This document shows positions 27,230 through 36,563 of a DNA stretch of 64,000 nucleotides, piece after piece; position 1 is the first letter of the stretch; the number at the start of each line of letters is the position of its first letter. Below the pieces are notes generated by a model. That model was not told where the DNA came from. It saw only the letters and a program-made list of their open reading frames with translations, and made no database searches. The translations under genes and the position numbers were made by a program. Origin of the DNA: Escherichia phage UE-S5a; sequence record PP175015.1; one strand, 5' to 3'.

Positions 27230-27262
27230 AAAAAGCCCCTCATTAGAGGGGCTTTAATTTTT
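27230..27262. terminator. Bidirectional terminator at the strand switch
   Basis: aaaaa-GCCCCTC-atta-GAGGGGC-tttaattttt. Confidence 0.65.
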
Positions 27263-27263
27263 A

Positions 27264-27764
27264 CTAAACTAACACCCAGTCTTCAGCTAATATATCTGAT
27301 TGGGATGGGACCCAAGGCATAAACTGGTCATCAACAGTTTTGATTCCTAACCATGGACGAGGTTTCAATTCATCAGCAAGTCCTGGACGCTCTAAGCTAC
27401 TGCTATTCCATTCTTGAGCAGCAACGTACTCAATGTACATTCCTTTACCATTCCAGCCTTTACGGGCTAGTTTGAAGCCGGATTTGAGAAGCTCTACTGC
27501 ATGACCAAAGGTGCAACCTTTTTCTACGTCATGGTACGCAGTTTCAAATGCAGATTTAGGTGACCAGCTAATATAGCCACGGAACTGAGGATGGTTAGAC
27601 TTAGAGTCTGGGTACTCTACTAAGTAACCTTCTTCTAATGGGTCTTCATTAGCAGGTACATCCCAGCCACGAAGTTTGCAGTATGTTTCTTTGTTCATTC
27701 GGAAACCATTTACACACTTGGTTCCGATATAATTGGTAAAATGGACTTTAATTTCTTCTGACAT
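27264..27764 (-). CDS. DUF2829-domain protein (Tad2-like anti-Thoeris candidate) with N-terminal extension
   Basis: Track start is GTG; ATG 27764 has GAGG RBS; C-terminal half LARKGWNGKGMYIEY...MPWVPSQSDILAEDWVLV matches the DUF2829 pattern as I recall it. Confidence 0.5.
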   Translation of the reverse strand: MSEEIKVHFTNYIGTKCVNGFRMNKETYCKLRGWDVPANEDPLEEGYLVEYPDSKSNHPQFRGYISWSPKSAFETAYHDVEKGCTFGHAVELLKSGFKLARKGWNGKGMYIEYVAAQEWNSSSLERPGLADELKPRPWLGIKTVDDQFMPWVPSQSDILAEDWVLV

Positions 27765-27882
27765 AACTACCTCAAATGAGAAAGCCCTCACTAGGAGGGC
27801 TTGTTTTGTTTTGGCTTCATGAGCCTTACCACATGTCGGGTAGTTCAGTACCTTTCGGTAAAAACTACCTTACACTTTTGAA

Positions 27883-28263
27883 TCAGATTGTACAACCACC
27901 ACCATCACAGGTGTTGTTTTCTGCAAAGGAAGCCAGAGCTTTAGCAGTCTCTTCTTTCTCATGCAGTGCCTGACGTAGCAGGTAACCTTCTAATTCCCAA
28001 ATCTTATTGAATGCATTTTCATATGCATACTGACGGCCTTTTTGCTCATCATAGATAGCTGGGTCAACACAGGCAGATACACCTTCAACTTTGAAGCCAT
28101 TTTCCAAGATGATAATGCAATAGGTTATCAGACCCAGGTTAGCCAAATCATCTGCCGGGAGTGCAGATGGATCAACAAATGCAGACTTCACTGCATCAGC
28201 TCCATTAAAATAGTAGACGCTCTTAATCTTAGCTTCGATTGCTTCTTTACTTACTGTTGCCAT
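27883..28263 (-). CDS. Phage gp49/gene-66 family protein (N4 gp49-like)
   Basis: Start moved to second ATG (MATVSKEAIEAK) with GAGG RBS; family call from recalled similarity to PF13876-type proteins. Confidence 0.45.
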   Translation of the reverse strand: MATVSKEAIEAKIKSVYYFNGADAVKSAFVDPSALPADDLANLGLITYCIIILENGFKVEGVSACVDPAIYDEQKGRQYAYENAFNKIWELEGYLLRQALHEKEETAKALASFAENNTCDGGGCTI

Positions 28264-28405
28264 TATTAGCCTCATAGAGTGGTTTGAGTTTGTACTTAAA
28301 CATGACTGCGTTGTTATAGGCTACGCTACCTGCAAACACCAAAGACTTGCGTCCTCGATTATCCGTTACCTCATAGGCATACGGGGTTGAGATTAGGTCA
28401 ATCAT
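28247..28405 (-). CDS. Small hypothetical protein
   Basis: Track ORF starts on TTG; only an internal ATG is available; weak. Confidence 0.2.
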   Translation of the reverse strand: MIDLISTPYAYEVTDNRGRKSLVFAGSVAYNNAVMFKYKLKPLYEANNGNSK

Positions 28406-28440
28406 ATTGATTATCCAATTATTAATACTCAAATAAAAAA

Positions 28441-28472
28441 GTCCCCCAGAGTGACGGCTCCAGGGGACTTAG
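28441..28472 (-). terminator. Candidate terminator downstream of the tRNA cluster (minus-strand sense)
   Basis: A-run on + strand followed by GTCCCC...GGGGAC inverted repeat (T-run in minus sense). Confidence 0.35.
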
Positions 28473-28713
28473 TACTATTTACCCATAGCTGGGAGGCTTT
28501 TGGTTCTTACCACGAAGACAGTCCACGCTGACTAGACTTGGGATTGATAGTCCCGTTCCTGTGGTAATTACTCAGGCTAGGATTTAAGGAGTTCCTATTC
28601 TCCAGCGAAATTCCCGTCGAGGGGAATAACAATACAATAGCAGTCACTGGACTGTCTTACCAGTGTTGTCTTTAGAGTGCGATGCAATCAGGACTATGTT
28701 ACTGCTGAATGGG

Positions 28714-28787
28714 TGTCCACTACTGGATTTGAACCAGTGACTTTCCGATTATTAGTCGGTTGCTTTCCCCGTCTAAGCTAAGCGGAC
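28714..28787 (-). tRNA. tRNA; anticodon loop reads CUAAUAA, i.e. anticodon AAU (formally Ile, unusual A34)
   Basis: Hand fold: acceptor GTCCGCT/AGTGGAC (one G-U), D-stem GCTT/AAGC, anticodon stem CCGA/TCGG, T-arm ACTGG-TTCAAAT-CCAGT; no encoded CCA. Confidence 0.55.
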
Positions 28788-28793
28788 ATAATA

Positions 28794-28869
28794 TGGTTAC
28801 CCGGACAGGATTCGAACCTGCGTCCTAGTTGGTTTACTAGTGGGGCTTTACCACTAAGCCTACCGGGTA
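28794..28869 (-). tRNA. tRNA with encoded CCA; anticodon arm non-canonical by hand fold (identity unresolved)
   Basis: Perfect acceptor TACCCGG/CCGGGTA, discriminator A, CCA encoded; D-stem GGCT/AGCC; T-arm GCAGG-TTCGAAT-CCTGT; anticodon region folds as CTAGT/ACTAG with a 6-nt loop. Confidence 0.5.
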
Positions 28870-29170
28870 TTAATAGGTGAGTCATGCCAGACTCTAACTG
28901 GCTCCTTCTTCGCAATCCTTACATACCCCTACATAATTATTGCGTTAAGCTTTTTTGTTTAAGTTTAAGTGAAGGCGTTCTTGCTGACTCATAATTGGGT
29001 TGGGCGTTTGACGAATGACTAGTTCGTTACTACCCGTTTGCCATAAGTACCTGGCGACTTTGGTTTGAGGTGGGAGTCCGAGTCCTGTACAGCCTTACCG
29101 TTCACACATTGGCAGCGTATCTAGAGTTGCACTTCCGGCAACTGGATTTAACTGTTACACCTCAAATAGG

Positions 29171-29245
29171 CAGTGGGGGATGGAATCGAACCATCAGTAT
29201 TAAGTCTTATTCGTGCACCAAGCACGCTAGTAGATTACTCTACCG
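29171..29245 (-). tRNA. tRNA-like element (canonical T-arm, acceptor pairing not resolved)
   Basis: T-arm GATGG-TTCGATT-CCATC present in minus sense; no matching 5' acceptor found by hand within 75 nt. Confidence 0.3.
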
Positions 29246-29315
29246 GAGGGAATCGAACCCTATCTACTTCACCAGACCCACCATAATTCTTCCAATTTAG
29301 AGTAGCATTGTCACG
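29238..29315 (-). tRNA. tRNA-like element (T-arm motif only)
   Basis: AGGG-TTCGATT-CCCT in minus sense; cloverleaf not resolved. Confidence 0.25.
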
Positions 29316-29367
29316 GTGGGTGCTTTAAATGCCGGGAAACATTTAAATATACAATGCTACTTTGAAT

Positions 29368-29445
29368 TGGTTATCAGTGAAGGATTCGAACCTCCGGTTG
29401 GAGTCTATAGCTTACCGCAGCAGCCCTCCAATCTAGCGGTGTCAC
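29368..29445 (-). tRNA. tRNA-like element with encoded CCA; possible long or interrupted tRNA
   Basis: CCA + discriminator + acceptor 3' strand ACTGATA + T-arm GGAGG-TTCGAAT-CCTTC; exact complement of the acceptor (TATCAGT) only found about 120 nt away at 29485-29491. Confidence 0.3.
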
Positions 29446-29493
29446 ACTTAGTCCAAACTTGAACATGTCAAGCCATCTCGTGCAACTGATAAT

Positions 29494-29560
29494 TGGTTCC
29501 GGCGTCTGGACTCGAACCAGAACACTCATGCCGTGCACGACACTAGTACCTACACCGGAA
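29494..29560 (-). tRNA. Short tRNA-like element with encoded CCA
   Basis: CCA, acceptor TCCGGTG/CGCCGGA, T-arm TCTGG-TTCGAGT-CCAGA; only about 66 nt, too short for standard D + anticodon arms. Confidence 0.3.
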
Positions 29561-29626
29561 TTAATTGCCAGGGATTCCACCTGGCTCCATCTGTTTTTAT
29601 AGTCACTCAGATATCGTCTGGACTGT

Positions 29627-29704
29627 AGGCATGGGTGGGAATCGAACCCACAAACCATTCAGCACTGTAGCCTCACGCTCTACCTATTTGAGCTATCACA
29701 TACC
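29627..29704 (-). tRNA. tRNA-like element
   Basis: T-arm GTGGG-TTCGATT-CCCAC, D-arm-like GCTC-AAATAGGTA-GAGC, acceptor GGTATGT/CCATGCC (6/7 pairs); anticodon arm not resolved. Confidence 0.35.
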
Positions 29705-30384
29705 ATTGATTAACTCCCCGTTTCTAATACATGGACGGGGACACTCCACGGTCGTTTGATAATCAGGACGACTCACTCCTGACTGACGCTTGGCTTATTA
29801 GGCTGCCATCAGAACAACATCATCGTTTGCATTTATGTTATTGGTTCGTTTCTAAAAAACCGCATAATCGCTTACGAAAACTATCAAAGAGTACACTAGC
29901 TCTGGGCCACGCTTGTGGACATCGGCCTACCTTCCACAGCTAATCAACTAATGCACTCACTGATAGCCCATAATAGGGGGGAGGGGACGAATCCTCCCTT
30001 TATACCCTATATTGCATGTAAGATCTAACAGTTCGATGTTGTAGGTAGCTAGGCTATCCGACATTTAACCCAGCCCATATAGGGGCTTATGTGATTAGAA
30101 TGCTCAACATTGAGCGGTTAGTTTGATAAGGGATCTGAAGCCTTATCCTAAAGATACTAACCTTTGGGATATAGCCTAAGATTCAGAAATGGCCCCTATA
30201 GGGAGAGGCCATTGATTAACCCGAATGTTGCTTTACATTTGCTGTGATAACCAATTCTTAAAATAGTCTGTCTGACGGATGGGGGTCCACCCCTAGCGTC
30301 AGTGCCATACGGCAAAGATTAAGTTAAGAAAGGTTATGATAGGAGTTCCTATCTCAAAGGATTCTAACAGAACCCTTCACGATA

Positions 30385-30555
30385 TTAACTACTCTTTTTT
30401 AATGCCTTTACTTCACCATCTTTATACCAAGCATATGGTATTAAGATTTTGCAACCTTCTGAATCAATGTGGAATGCTTTGTTCCCTTCAACAGGTTCTC
30501 CACCCACGAAAGAACTAACCTTTCCATTGAGCCAGTGAATAGTAAATTTGTTCAT
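30385..30555 (-). CDS. Small hypothetical protein (about 56 aa), below ORF-track cutoff
   Basis: ATG with AGGG RBS; MNKFTIHWLNGKVSSFVGGEPVEGNKAFHIDSEGCKILIPYAWYKDGEVKALKKSS; coordinates hand-counted. Confidence 0.3.
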   Translation of the reverse strand: MNKFTIHWLNGKVSSFVGGEPVEGNKAFHIDSEGCKILIPYAWYKDGEVKALKKSS

Positions 30556-30786
30556 GTTAACCCTGTTTGAACCAATCCCCTTCAGAGAGTATTAAAGGGG
30601 ACTGGTTCGGTTGTTGTTATTCTGGCGGCTTGTCACCACCGTGTTTACCACTGCATTTCCACAGGATAATGACAGTGATGATAAAAGCTATGTATGGAGC
30701 CGACACGTCTATAATCCTGACCAGTAGTAGCATCAGGACTATAAACACTACCACACCTAGCAGCAGCTTCTGAGCCACCTACCAGA

Positions 30787-31230
30787 TTAACTACGTTTAA
30801 GGCCAGCGAACAGTGAAGGTTTCGCAGCAGGTTTCTCTGCTGGTTCTTCAGCCTTAACCTCTTCCTGCACAACTTCTTCTTGTGCTTCTGGTTCAGTTAC
30901 TGCTTCTTCTTCAGGTTCCGGCGTAGAACTCTCGTTCGGACCACCAGTAGAGGTCTGGATTTCTTCTCCCTTTACCTCTTCAACCACTTCTTCTGGTTCC
31001 GGTTCTACCGGACGGTGTTTAGCTTCCTGAGGGTTCTTACGAGAACGACGTGTCTTCTTCTCTACCAAGGGCGGAGTATCATCGTTATGACTTACCTCTT
31101 CGTTAATACCAACGGAGGCTGTACCATCTGCATTGATGACAATACTAATGTCTCCAGCAAGATTGATTTGATCATCGACATAAGCCTGTACAGCAGCTTC
31201 TACTTCGGACTGGTTCAAAATGATTTGCAT
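30787..31230 (-). CDS. Acidic Glu/Pro-rich hypothetical protein
   Basis: 147 aa, ATG with AAGG RBS; low-complexity acidic C-terminal half. Confidence 0.5.
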   Translation of the reverse strand: MQIILNQSEVEAAVQAYVDDQINLAGDISIVINADGTASVGINEEVSHNDDTPPLVEKKTRRSRKNPQEAKHRPVEPEPEEVVEEVKGEEIQTSTGGPNESSTPEPEEEAVTEPEAQEEVVQEEVKAEEPAEKPAAKPSLFAGLKRS

Positions 31231-33432: not shown

Positions 33433-35586
33433 TTATTTGCCAGCGTAGCGTTTAGCCACGGTGACCATTACGGTTGCATTCAATTCATCATCTGGTAATG
33501 GATTAGCCAGTTTCTTATTGAATGTGTGGACGGCTTGCTGTACTTGAGCAAAGTCCCAACCACTGTCAACCAATGCCAGTGCGTACTTAATCATTTGATT
33601 ATTACGATTACCGGAGGCAATACGACTAGCGAACCAACGCTCCAGATTATCCAACGACTGTACTTCCTTCATCTGGTTCTGGAACTGCTCGTTCTTACTA
33701 GTACGAGGAATAAAGTCACGCACATCTAACAGATTCGCATCAAGATTGTAATGATAGGAACCAGTCTCACAGGACATCCACTTCTTGGCTCGTTGGTTAG
33801 CAGACTCATCTGTTTCAAATGGTAGCCAAGCCATAACGTTATTCATGAACTCTTTGTATTCCTCAGTGTCGAGGTGTAACTCATAGTTCATTGGAATAAT
33901 CAGACGGAAGCGGTTCTCTTCATCAGTATGACGCTTGGTGGTATAGGTCATGAACTTATATTCCTTCATTAGTTCATGGCACGTATGCAGGGGTACTCCA
34001 CCATCACAGTCAATAACAATCATGTTAAATCCTGGGATAACATTTTCTTCAGAACGATGCCCATTCTTCATGTGATGGTTTACCCAGTGCATACCGGGAG
34101 CTTGGGTTAATACATGCAACTGGTCGAACGGTACACGTTCACCAATGTAGTCATAAGCAAAGCTATCACTATACGCCACAATCATCTCATTGATGTCTGT
34201 CTCTTTAAGAGTTTCACCACGGAAGAACTCAATACCTTCATTGAAGGTCTTCTTAATGATGATGTGCTGCTTGTAACCCCATGCTGTAGCAAGAGTCATC
34301 ATCTCATTACGAGCTGCATTACCACTCTTATAGAATGGTAAAGACTCCACCAAATCAGCATGGGTTACTTCTTTACCTACAGAAGCAATGTACTTAGCCA
34401 GCTTCACATAAGCCTTCTCACGATTGAGGATTGTCTGAAATGCTGCTCCAGATTCTTCTACAAGCAGAATTGCTTGTTTAAGGTGGGTCATCTCAATGAA
34501 TGAACTTTGGTCAACAAACGCCAGTGCACCTGCCAGCTTAAGTGCTTTGAAATAACGGTGAGAAATTTCAGCTTTACGAATATCTTCATGGTCAGCCATA
34601 GCTTCTGCTTGCTTCTCACAATCAATTTTGTAAGCAATCAGAGCAATACCCACGGCATCTTCTACAACCATCTTAAAACCAAACAGGTTTGGGTCAGCCA
34701 GACTATGGAAATGGTTAGCCCACTTACCAAGAGTCTGTACGTTATCTTGTTTAATCAGGTTACGGTAGATTTCTTCCGGGGTTAGTGTTGCATGTGCTCT
34801 CTTGTCTAAGTGACCAGTAGCAAACAGACAGCGACGTGCATACCCTATATCGAGAAAGCCATAGAACTGGTCTTCAGTCTGACCACCATCCAGCAGCTTA
34901 CTCGGAGTACCGAACAGCAGCAGGTTAGTTGGAGTTTTTCCATCCAATTCTTCACCACGAACGCTTTCAGCAGTATTCTTGGTTAGCTTCTGTTTTACTT
35001 TTCCCTGGTCATATAACTCCAGGAATAGGGTTAGTACATCCATGTTAGCCAACAGGTTCGAACCAATTTCATCAATCTGAAGATTGATTGAACCACACCC
35101 AGCCATTAACAGCTTATGCCGTAGCTGTTTAACTGCTGGTGGAGTACCAGAGTCAAACGTAAACGGATATGCCCCGGCACGTTTATACTCTGCTTCAACT
35201 TTATCAAACTCTTCCTGCTGGTCAGTACCCTGACGAGCAGAACGTTCGTTAGCAATCTTCCATAGACGATCATTTGCAATGACGGGCATGGTGTCTTCCA
35301 TAAAGCGTTTACGGAAGCCAGACATGAACCCGTCTTCAATGATATTTACTGAGTGACCTTTACCGAAACCAGATGTAGCCAACGCTATAGCGTAGATGTT
35401 TACCGGCAGGTCACCACGGTCTTTAGTTACAATGGTTGCACCCATGCAGGATGCCATTTTAGCCAAGAAGTAGGCTACTTCGACACGGAAGAATCCCCGG
35501 TCATTATTCTGGGTTTTATTGCAGAGCACATCTACGATTTCTTCAATCGCCTGATGATGCACTACTCCGGTAAGGTCAATACTCAT
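33433..35586 (-). CDS. Putative DNA primase / replication initiation protein (N4 gp43-like by size and position)
   Basis: Track start 35643 is TTG; ATG at 35586 overlaps upstream stop (ATGA); about 717 aa. Confidence 0.45.
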   Translation of the reverse strand: MSIDLTGVVHHQAIEEIVDVLCNKTQNNDRGFFRVEVAYFLAKMASCMGATIVTKDRGDLPVNIYAIALATSGFGKGHSVNIIEDGFMSGFRKRFMEDTMPVIANDRLWKIANERSARQGTDQQEEFDKVEAEYKRAGAYPFTFDSGTPPAVKQLRHKLLMAGCGSINLQIDEIGSNLLANMDVLTLFLELYDQGKVKQKLTKNTAESVRGEELDGKTPTNLLLFGTPSKLLDGGQTEDQFYGFLDIGYARRCLFATGHLDKRAHATLTPEEIYRNLIKQDNVQTLGKWANHFHSLADPNLFGFKMVVEDAVGIALIAYKIDCEKQAEAMADHEDIRKAEISHRYFKALKLAGALAFVDQSSFIEMTHLKQAILLVEESGAAFQTILNREKAYVKLAKYIASVGKEVTHADLVESLPFYKSGNAARNEMMTLATAWGYKQHIIIKKTFNEGIEFFRGETLKETDINEMIVAYSDSFAYDYIGERVPFDQLHVLTQAPGMHWVNHHMKNGHRSEENVIPGFNMIVIDCDGGVPLHTCHELMKEYKFMTYTTKRHTDEENRFRLIIPMNYELHLDTEEYKEFMNNVMAWLPFETDESANQRAKKWMSCETGSYHYNLDANLLDVRDFIPRTSKNEQFQNQMKEVQSLDNLERWFASRIASGNRNNQMIKYALALVDSGWDFAQVQQAVHTFNKKLANPLPDDELNATVMVTVAKRYAGK

Positions 35587-36563
35587 GATGGAAAATATCT
35601 CTCTCTTTGTTTGCAAATGGATGCGACAGGGCAGTATAAACAACGCTTAACCTGCCCCTCCACGACCTTGATAGCACCCTTGCCACCTTTTTCAGCCATG
35701 AAGATACGAGCAGATGCCATATCGTCAAAGTTTTTGGTACTTCTGGCTCCAGGCATATCTACCTTAGAAGCATCAGAGAAGTATTTGAACTGTGGCTCTG
35801 TTCGCCACAACTCCTCGTCAGTACATTCAGGAATTTCCTCTTCAGGAGCATCCCAGTACTTTTCGATGAGATGTATCTTCTCTTCTACCCAACGTTCAGT
35901 CTTATCGACAGATAACAACGGAATATCCTTATGCATAATACGATTAGCAGGATAGTTCGGATTGCTATTAGCCATGTGTTTCATGAAGTCAGTGAAGATG
36001 TAGTTAATACGGATTACATCCTCGGTAATGATGTCGTTGTGAATCCAACGGTACAAGCTACCTTGCATCTTGTGTTCATCATCACGGGAACCAGCAACCC
36101 AGGAATAGGTTGAGGTAGACTTAAAGTCTTGCAATAGACCTTCTGTTACGATGTCGAACTTACCCCCGATAGTCCAACCCTTAACTACCCTGGTTCCACG
36201 TTGTTCAATGTAGATTGGGATAAGGTCAGGGTTAGCATCAAAGTCTGCTTTGGTTGGGTTAATGACTACTGCATCAATTACTCGCTGAGGATAGCCCAGC
36301 TTCTTCAATGCAGTCTTATGACCCAGCTTCCAGGCTTTCTCAATAGAATCGTGTAAGCCAGTACCCATTGATGTGGAGACAAAATCCATAACATCAATTG
36401 ACTGGTCACTGAGGTCTACACGATGCTTCATGACGATTTGCTTAAGTGGCTTAAGCAGTGTGGTTACAGACAGATACTTAGGATTGTCTACATAATCATA
36501 CTCGTCATGTAATAGCCATACAGCCAGGGCCAGCGAGACATCATGGTTGTTGGTTATCTTCAT
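35583..36563 (-). CDS. Putative nuclease with C-terminal Cys cluster (PD-(D/E)XK-like)
   Basis: 326 aa; C-terminal RCLYCPVASICK Cys cluster as in Cas4/RecB-type nucleases; low-confidence family call. Confidence 0.35.
   Translation of the reverse strand: MKITNNHDVSLALAVWLLHDEYDYVDNPKYLSVTTLLKPLKQIVMKHRVDLSDQSIDVMDFVSTSMGTGLHDSIEKAWKLGHKTALKKLGYPQRVIDAVVINPTKADFDANPDLIPIYIEQRGTRVVKGWTIGGKFDIVTEGLLQDFKSTSTYSWVAGSRDDEHKMQGSLYRWIHNDIITEDVIRINYIFTDFMKHMANSNPNYPANRIMHKDIPLLSVDKTERWVEEKIHLIEKYWDAPEEEIPECTDEELWRTEPQFKYFSDASKVDMPGARSTKNFDDMASARIFMAEKGGKGAIKVVEGQVKRCLYCPVASICKQRERYFPS

Follow-up and report, generated by a model that had tools for sequence, protein, structure and literature searches.

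A Tad2-family protein with an additional N-terminal domain beside the virion RNA polymerase gene of Escherichia phage UE-S5a

The gene and its place in the genome

We analysed a stretch of 64,000 nucleotides from Escherichia phage UE-S5a, sequence record PP175015.1 (the window), and within it the gene at 27264..27764. Both the list of open reading frames (ORFs) and the sequence itself give an ORF of 166 amino acids and a stop codon on the minus strand. The product has two parts, a small N-terminal domain, here called the N-domain, and a C-terminal domain of the Tad2 family, Table 1. The gene is the Gamaleyavirus orthologue of N4 gp49 and probably encodes an immune-signal sponge of the Tad2 family. 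Translation starts at an ATG at 27764, preceded by GAGG five bases upstream, and ends at the stop codon 27266-27264, which gives a protein of 19 kDa with an isoelectric point of 5.4. We also considered the GTG at 27791 as a start, which would give a longer protein, and rejected it in favour of the ATG: translation from there would cross a hairpin, and the N4 orthologue has nothing that corresponds.

The gene is convergent with that of the virion RNA polymerase (vRNAP). The hairpin between them lies five bases past the vRNAP stop and eight bases from the end of the Tad2 gene, and it is predicted to be a bidirectional terminator common to both. Its counterpart in phage PhAPEC7 is annotated as a terminator pair. 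An earlier note, made from the sequence alone, had given exactly these coordinates for the ORF, leaving the strand unstated, and had placed the gene directly after the vRNAP terminator. The position is right; the implied downstream arrangement is not, as the gene lies on the opposite strand and runs towards the polymerase gene.

Transcription of the Tad2 gene has the same direction as that of the replication genes, i.e. the primase, a gp44-like ATPase, the single-stranded DNA-binding protein and homologues of gp46 and gp47. Together with the adjoining gene, a predicted member of the Acb4 family, it forms the vRNAP-proximal end of this block of genes read in the early/middle direction. According to a June 2026 preprint (bioRxiv 10.64898/2026.06.04.730250), N4-like phages have an anti-signalling hotspot with Tad2, Tad3, Acb4 and Sequestin between their primase and vRNAP genes. 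The vRNAP gene is one border of this hotspot, and in the window both the Tad2 gene and the Acb4 gene (27883..28263) are located between it and a primase-like ORF at 33433..35643 on the minus strand.

The 1.7 kb around the Tad2 gene are 100% identical to Escherichia phage UE-M3, 99.8-99.9% identical to UE-S5b, PBM-2/3, UE-M6 and PGN829.1, and 86-92% identical to other Gamaleyavirus phages; the window belongs to Gamaleyavirus. The 166-residue protein shares 75% identity with N4 gp49 (ABK54417.1) over 163 residues and matches the PHROG family phrog_872 over its full length (E-value 1.3e-65). When proteins with both domains are clustered at 90% identity, well over 100 clusters have full-length coverage. 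RefSeq and GenBank carry orthologues under the names 'DUF2829 domain-containing protein' or 'Thoeris anti-defense 2-like protein', and the records of Escherichia phages Mimir124 and Huey call theirs an 'anti-CRISPR protein'.

The earlier note had expected an N4-like phage with a sponge of the Tad2 type to be new. With the orthologue in N4, the PHROG family, the existing DUF2829 and Tad2-like labels and a hotspot that is already described, this expectation has to be given up; as an ordinary counterpart of N4 gene 49 the gene is no new discovery. It confirms that Gamaleyavirus phages carry the pair of Acb4 and Tad2 genes seen in N4 and adds little beyond that.

Table 1. Features at the vRNAP-proximal end of the gene block in the window.
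Feature	Coordinates	Strand	Basis or remarks
vRNAP gene, 3,456 amino acids	16856..27226	+	ORF list and annotation of matching phage records
10-bp hairpin with T-runs on both sides	27232..27255		Scores as terminator on both strands (terminator scan)
Two-domain coding sequence (N-domain and Tad2 domain), N4 gp49 orthologue	27264..27764	-	ORF list, phrog_872, AlphaFold2
Tad2 domain, residues 84-166	27267..27515	-	PF11195, phmmer, Foldseek
Hypervariable beta2-beta3 insertion of the Tad2 domain, residues 114-137	27354..27425	-	Orthologue alignment
N-terminal sponge-associated domain, residues 9-80	27525..27740	-	Small, beta-rich
8-bp hairpin between the Acb4-like gene and the Tad2 gene	27782..27802		Terminator-like on both strands
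Acb4-family gene (PF13876; predicted), N4 gp48 orthologue	27883..28263	-	Profile match and orthology
ORF of 61 amino acids	28247..28432	-	phrog_34266 match, E-value 9e-21
tRNA-Ile (anticodon AAT)	28710-28788	-	ARAGORN; Rfam, 63 bits
Second tRNA	28794-28869	-	Anticodon loop not assignable by ARAGORN; Rfam, 40.7 bits

The Tad2 domain

For the C-terminal half, the earlier note had pointed to DUF2829 and Tad2, and the Pfam search bears this out. Residues 85-166 match PF11195 (Tad2-like, formerly DUF2829) with an E-value of 2.8e-24 and 85.9 bits against a cut-off of 25, and the match spans positions 2-73 of the 73 in the profile. The motifs GWNGKGM and PWVPSQSDILAEDWVLV are both present in this half. 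Among the PDB sequences, phmmer finds ModTad2 (9EIB, 8V3E) with an E-value of 1.7e-20 and SPO1 Tad2 (8SME, 8WJE) with 5e-13, followed by weaker matches to AcrIIA7/HgmTad2 and SptTad2, 9KZR being matched at 1.8e-11. The identity of the domain is 48% to ModTad2 (40/83) and 40% to SPO1 Tad2 (32/81).

To this the predicted structure can be added. The AlphaFold2 single-chain model of the whole protein, built on 57 two-domain homologues, has a mean predicted local distance difference test score (pLDDT) of 89 and a predicted template modelling score (pTM) of 0.76. Its Tad2 domain consists of a helix at 86-94, strands at 99-101, 110-114, 138-142, 148-151 and 163-165, and two further helices at 116-119 and 155-159. 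When this model is compared with the PDB using Foldseek, the significant matches are Tad2 chains only, with TM-scores (normalised to the Tad2 chain) of 0.81-0.87 to 8SMF, 8SMG and 8V3E at a probability of 1.00.

The residues predicted to contact the ligand are largely retained. In SPO1 Tad2, 3' cyclic ADP-ribose (3'cADPR) or its ordered waters are contacted by W25, N26, I63, T65, D67, H71, W73, S76, T78 and D79. These align, in order, to W104, N105, I141, T143, D145, M149, W151, S154, S156 and D157 of the UE-S5a protein, i.e. eight out of ten are identical, T78 is replaced conservatively by S156, and H71 is changed to M149. Across the 57 two-domain homologues most of the predicted contact residues are conserved at 90% or more. 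Because the Pfam match, the PDB matches, the predicted fold and the pocket residues all agree, the C-terminal domain is a member of the Tad2 family by sequence, fold and predicted ligand-contact residues.

One part of the domain behaves differently. Residues 114-137, the insertion between strands beta2 and beta3, share 37% identity among close orthologues vs 72-82% for the rest of the protein, and have the lowest pLDDT in the AlphaFold2 model. Across the family the length of the insertion ranges from 0 to 29 residues, and in UE-S5a it is as long as in ModTad2. In HgmTad2 and SptTad2, cyclic dinucleotides are bound in a second pocket made from this insertion, and in ModTad2 the corresponding region forms a second pocket for cUMP or cCMP, with histidine ADP-ribose (His-ADPR) in the canonical pocket. 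SPO1 Tad2 (8SME-8SMG) binds 3'cADPR and 2'cADPR, and the ligand of Tad2_71 is N7-cADPR. The hypervariability of the insertion, as read from the aligned sequences, suggests a pocket which determines specificity or evolves fast.

The N-terminal domain

The first 83 residues match no entry in Pfam or NCBIfam; in NCBIfam none of the three genes of the locus finds a match. The earlier note had described an uncharacterised extra region of about 80 residues here, and this region is indeed a domain of its own: the N-terminal half folds confidently by itself in structure prediction, with a pLDDT of 91. It is formed by four strands and two helices and is characterised by the motifs YIGTK, RGW, EGYLVEY and GYISWSPK..F. 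In the monomer model its first strand is short (residues 10-13) and could be swapped.

Within the two-domain family the N-domain is the more conserved part, with 26 out of 69 columns conserved at 90% or more vs 20 out of 83 for the Tad2 domain. Its invariant polar and aromatic residues include K16, E40, E50, N57, Y64, S66, W67 and K70. On average the members of the N-domain family carry a net charge of -3.8, which makes the family acidic.

A related domain is found in RyR Tad, gp68 of Pectobacterium phage vB_PatP_CB1. Comparing the two N-domains, hhalign gives a probability of 97.2% and an E-value of 4.3e-11 over 75 columns, and in a Foldseek search of BFVD the N-domain matches an RyR-domain protein of Yersinia phage TG1 (E-value 9.3e-5, TM-score 0.71). 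In RyR Tad it is the C-terminal RyR-like domain that binds 3'cADPR, and the N-domain alone has no apparent activity against type I Thoeris (10.64898/2026.06.04.730250). The crystal structure in the same work is a domain-swapped dimer, where the N-domain gives its first strand to the partner protomer and both domains aid dimerisation.

Searching with the N-terminal half alone yields homologues that are mostly fused to PF21825 (crAss001_48), sometimes to PF11195, or that stand alone with 73 residues. Sequestin, a family of sponges for 3'cADPR, corresponds to PF21825, and Acb4, a family of sponges for cyclic nucleotides, to PF13876; frequent fusions have linked both to Tad2. To see the whole family, an N-domain profile was searched against 1.84 billion representatives of 50%-identity clusters, which gave 2,901 proteins at an E-value of 1e-3 or below and 1,385 at 1e-10 or below. 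In the best 150 of the 2,901, a non-random sample of the family, the Pfam partners are Sequestin in 43, Tad2 in 41, Acb4 in 16 and the Acb2/Tad1 hairpin in 5. By our own labelling, at least 98 of these 150 carry Tad2, Sequestin or Acb4, triple combinations included; among those left without a label, several have the start of Tad2 in truncated form. About two thirds of the best-scoring members thus have a partner from one of four or five sponge families of unrelated structure. The partner almost always follows the N-domain, with a short linker between the two.

Cultured phages provide examples of each architecture. N-domain and Tad2 are combined in Kapi1, a P22-like coliphage, N-domain and Sequestin in Klebsiella pKP-BM327-1.1 and Acinetobacter nACB2, and N-domain and Acb4 in Clostridium CP51. 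The N4-like Pseudomonas phage inbricus has a triple fusion of N-domain, Acb4 and Sequestin of 232 residues (locus L004, 1492..2190), which adjoins the terminase gene, not that of the vRNAP. Erwinia phage phiEaP8 encodes a stand-alone N-domain of 78 residues (locus L006, 1504..1740), beside and convergent with the vRNAP gene. This is the position of the gene for N-domain and Tad2 in the UE-S5a window and in N4. Two further stand-alone N-domain proteins are P0018 and P0024.

The family phrog_9467 joins the N-domain with Acb4, and we considered whether the N-domain is part of the Acb4 fold. This was rejected, as each of the two, the Acb4 core and the N-domain, is also found without the other. The N-domain is a module in its own right, mobile and attached to several sponge families that are not related to each other.

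Roughly 45 of the best 150 N-domain proteins (within P0156-P0301) have 50-130 extra residues with no Pfam match, and most of these tails do not resemble one another. They are candidates for new sponge families, provided that the N-domain marks sponges.

Neighbouring genes, function and known systems

The product of the neighbouring gene at 27883..28263 matches PF13876 with an E-value of 1.3e-25 and shares 47% identity with N4 gp48, with the start aligned to an internal methionine. The ORF list has an earlier ATG at 28275; homology favours the methionine at 28263. By these matches the gene is predicted to be an Acb4-family cyclic-nucleotide sponge gene. N4 gp48 itself has been verified by experiment as an Acb4 sponge which is both required for triggering the Panoptes defence and sufficient for it; the Panoptes papers treat gp48 only, and gp49 goes unmentioned.

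Between the Acb4 gene and a strong terminator-like hairpin at 28439-28470 lies an ORF of 61 residues, which overlaps the Acb4 start and may be the third small gene of an anti-signalling cluster. G+C-rich hairpins with T-runs (27232-27255, 27782-27802 and 28439-28470) bracket each gene of the Acb4/Tad2 pair; the terminator scan gives 10 terminator-like sites in 2.3 kb vs 2.1 expected. The following ~2.3 kb of the window (28470..30787) are poor in ORFs and contain the two minus-strand tRNA genes of Table 1.

How the protein might work is suggested by its relatives, and for the oligomeric state, the ligand and the anti-defence effect this is what we infer. By analogy with the solved Tad2 proteins, the C-terminal domain would assemble into a homotetramer. 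Pockets between the protomers, lined by W104/N105, W151, S154, S156 and D157, would then sequester TIR-derived ADP-ribose signals, for example 3'cADPR or His-ADPR, and with the signal sequestered the Thoeris effector would never be activated. The Acb4 neighbour would cover cyclic oligonucleotide signals.

Several points weigh against this. The histidine that coordinates water in SPO1 Tad2, H71, is methionine or valine in the two-domain family. Tad2 proteins tetramerise along helix alpha1, and in the UE-S5a protein this helix comes after the N-domain and a linker of ~5 residues. ModTad2, the closest solved relative, does not inhibit type I Thoeris. The ligands of the family are diverse, i.e. 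3'cADPR, His-ADPR, N7-cADPR, cyclic dinucleotides, cUMP/cCMP and, for AcrIIA7, tracrRNA, and because the family is this diverse in function the ligand of the UE-S5a domain cannot be read from its sequence. Finally, a literature search for experiments on the 166-residue protein, on N4 gp49 or on any protein combining N-domain and Tad2 found none.

Two alternatives concern the protein as a whole. It could be an anti-CRISPR protein of the AcrIIA7 type, in keeping with the labels of the Mimir124 and Huey orthologues and with the matches of the Tad2 domain to the AcrIIA7 chains 9kzr and 8kbi at an E-value of about 1e-11; AcrIIA7 moreover binds tracrRNA without its head domain. However, these matches are far weaker than those to ModTad2 or SPO1 Tad2 (1.8e-11 for 9KZR vs 1.7e-20 for ModTad2), the beta-rich N-domain is unrelated to the two-helix head of pdAcrIIA7, and the inhibition of Cas9 by HgmTad2 was not reproduced by one group. 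We know of no type II-A CRISPR-Cas9 in E. coli, and so of no target for such a protein in the host. Taken together this makes an anti-CRISPR function very improbable. A protein with the Tad2 fold could also serve outside defence, for example in housekeeping nucleotide binding, replication or transcription, and the gene does close the block of replication genes; we regard this as unlikely. A predicted Tad2-family sponge remains our preferred explanation for the C-terminal domain.

What the N-domain contributes to such a sponge is a separate question. It may be a structural accessory, a handle for domain-swapped dimerisation or stabilisation which raises avidity, stability or solubility and leaves the protein with one ligand-binding domain. 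The only direct data speak for this, namely the domain-swapped dimer of RyR Tad, its N-domain inactive alone and its C-domain alone carrying both the anti-Thoeris activity and the ligand, and the constant place of the N-domain ahead of its partner, at the end of a short linker, counts in the same direction. However, stand-alone N-domain genes exist, and are called frequent (10.64898/2026.06.04.730250), where a bare handle has no obvious use; the cores of Tad2, Acb4, Sequestin and AcrIIA7 oligomerise without it; and polar residues of the surface type are conserved beyond what a scaffold usually needs. We consider an accessory role a real possibility, somewhat short of an even chance.

Alternatively, the N-domain could itself be an anti-defence module, most simply a sixth kind of small oligomeric sponge that takes up another immune signal, and the protein would then block two pathways in the way of the Acb4-Tad2 and Acb4-Sequestin fusions. 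The earlier note had already raised a second ligand-binding domain as a possibility. Fusions of one sponge to another are the documented norm, and Sequestin was discovered by the same logic, in a Pfam-based screen to which the N-domain, having no Pfam model, is invisible. It is fused to Sequestin, Tad2, Acb4, Acb2/Tad1-type and RyR-Tad domains, partners which are reported to form dimers, tetramers or hexamers without it; it exists as a stand-alone ORF, once, in phiEaP8, at the syntenic position next to the vRNAP gene; and it is conserved more strongly than the Tad2 domain it accompanies. Its size (~73 residues) and its dimeric relative in the crystal fit the general traits of sponges, and many of its polar and aromatic residues are strongly conserved. 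On the other side, its family is acidic where the pockets of known sponges are described as positively charged, it has no known ligand, and the relative is inactive against type I Thoeris. On this evidence an independent anti-defence function is possible, at slightly lower odds than the accessory role. Both weightings are approximate, and what they leave falls to other roles of the N-domain; between some function of its own and pure scaffolding we lean slightly to the former.

The remaining interest of the locus is this N-domain, a large family that is absent from Pfam and marks sponge proteins. If it is autonomous, a sponge or inhibitor directed at a signal or protein outside the assays made so far, proteins of the N4 gp49 type would neutralise two pathways, and the 2,901 clusters would be a large reservoir that has escaped fusion-based screens because there is no Pfam model. 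A signal-binding N-domain would be a new sponge family, and one that only dimerises would hold a general lesson on how sponge proteins are constructed. In both cases the N-domain serves well as a marker in the search for new sponge partners, namely in those members with no recognisable one, and its distribution makes it a cheap and well-defined target for experiments.

Among known systems, N4 gp49 is the nearest. It has the same two-domain architecture, is convergent with the adjoining vRNAP gene and has an Acb4-type neighbour, gp48. It differs in the beta2-beta3 insertion of the Tad2 domain, which is almost wholly replaced; the UE-S5a version is four residues longer. ModTad2 (MoTad2, from a Myroides odoratus prophage) and SPO1 Tad2 share the fold and the residues of the canonical pocket, and the insertion has the length of that in ModTad2, the ligands of which are His-ADPR and cUMP. 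However, both are single-domain proteins of 89 residues with no N-terminal domain, and H71 is replaced by methionine in the UE-S5a protein.

Other comparisons concern the combination of domains. RyR Tad resembles the UE-S5a protein in having a homologous N-domain in front of a sponge domain, and it comes from an N4-like phage and the same hotspot between primase and vRNAP. Its partner domain, in contrast, is an all-helical, dimeric RyR-repeat domain (PF02026), and its N-domain is divergent, lacking the RGW, N57 and K70 motifs. Modules of anti-signalling loci are also joined in one polypeptide in the fusions of Acb4 with Tad2 (Pasteurella phage Pm86) and of Acb4 with Sequestin (gp59 of the N4-like Pseudomonas phage Ab09, inside the same hotspot); in these fusions both modules are proven sponges, whereas the N-domain of UE-S5a has no known ligand. 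Finally, pdAcrIIA7 (PDB 9KZR) likewise has a tetrameric core of the Tad2 fold with an extra N-terminal domain which is dispensable for tetramerisation, but there the extra domain is a two-helix head of 48 residues that masks the anti-CRISPR activity and is unrelated to the beta-rich N-domain of UE-S5a.

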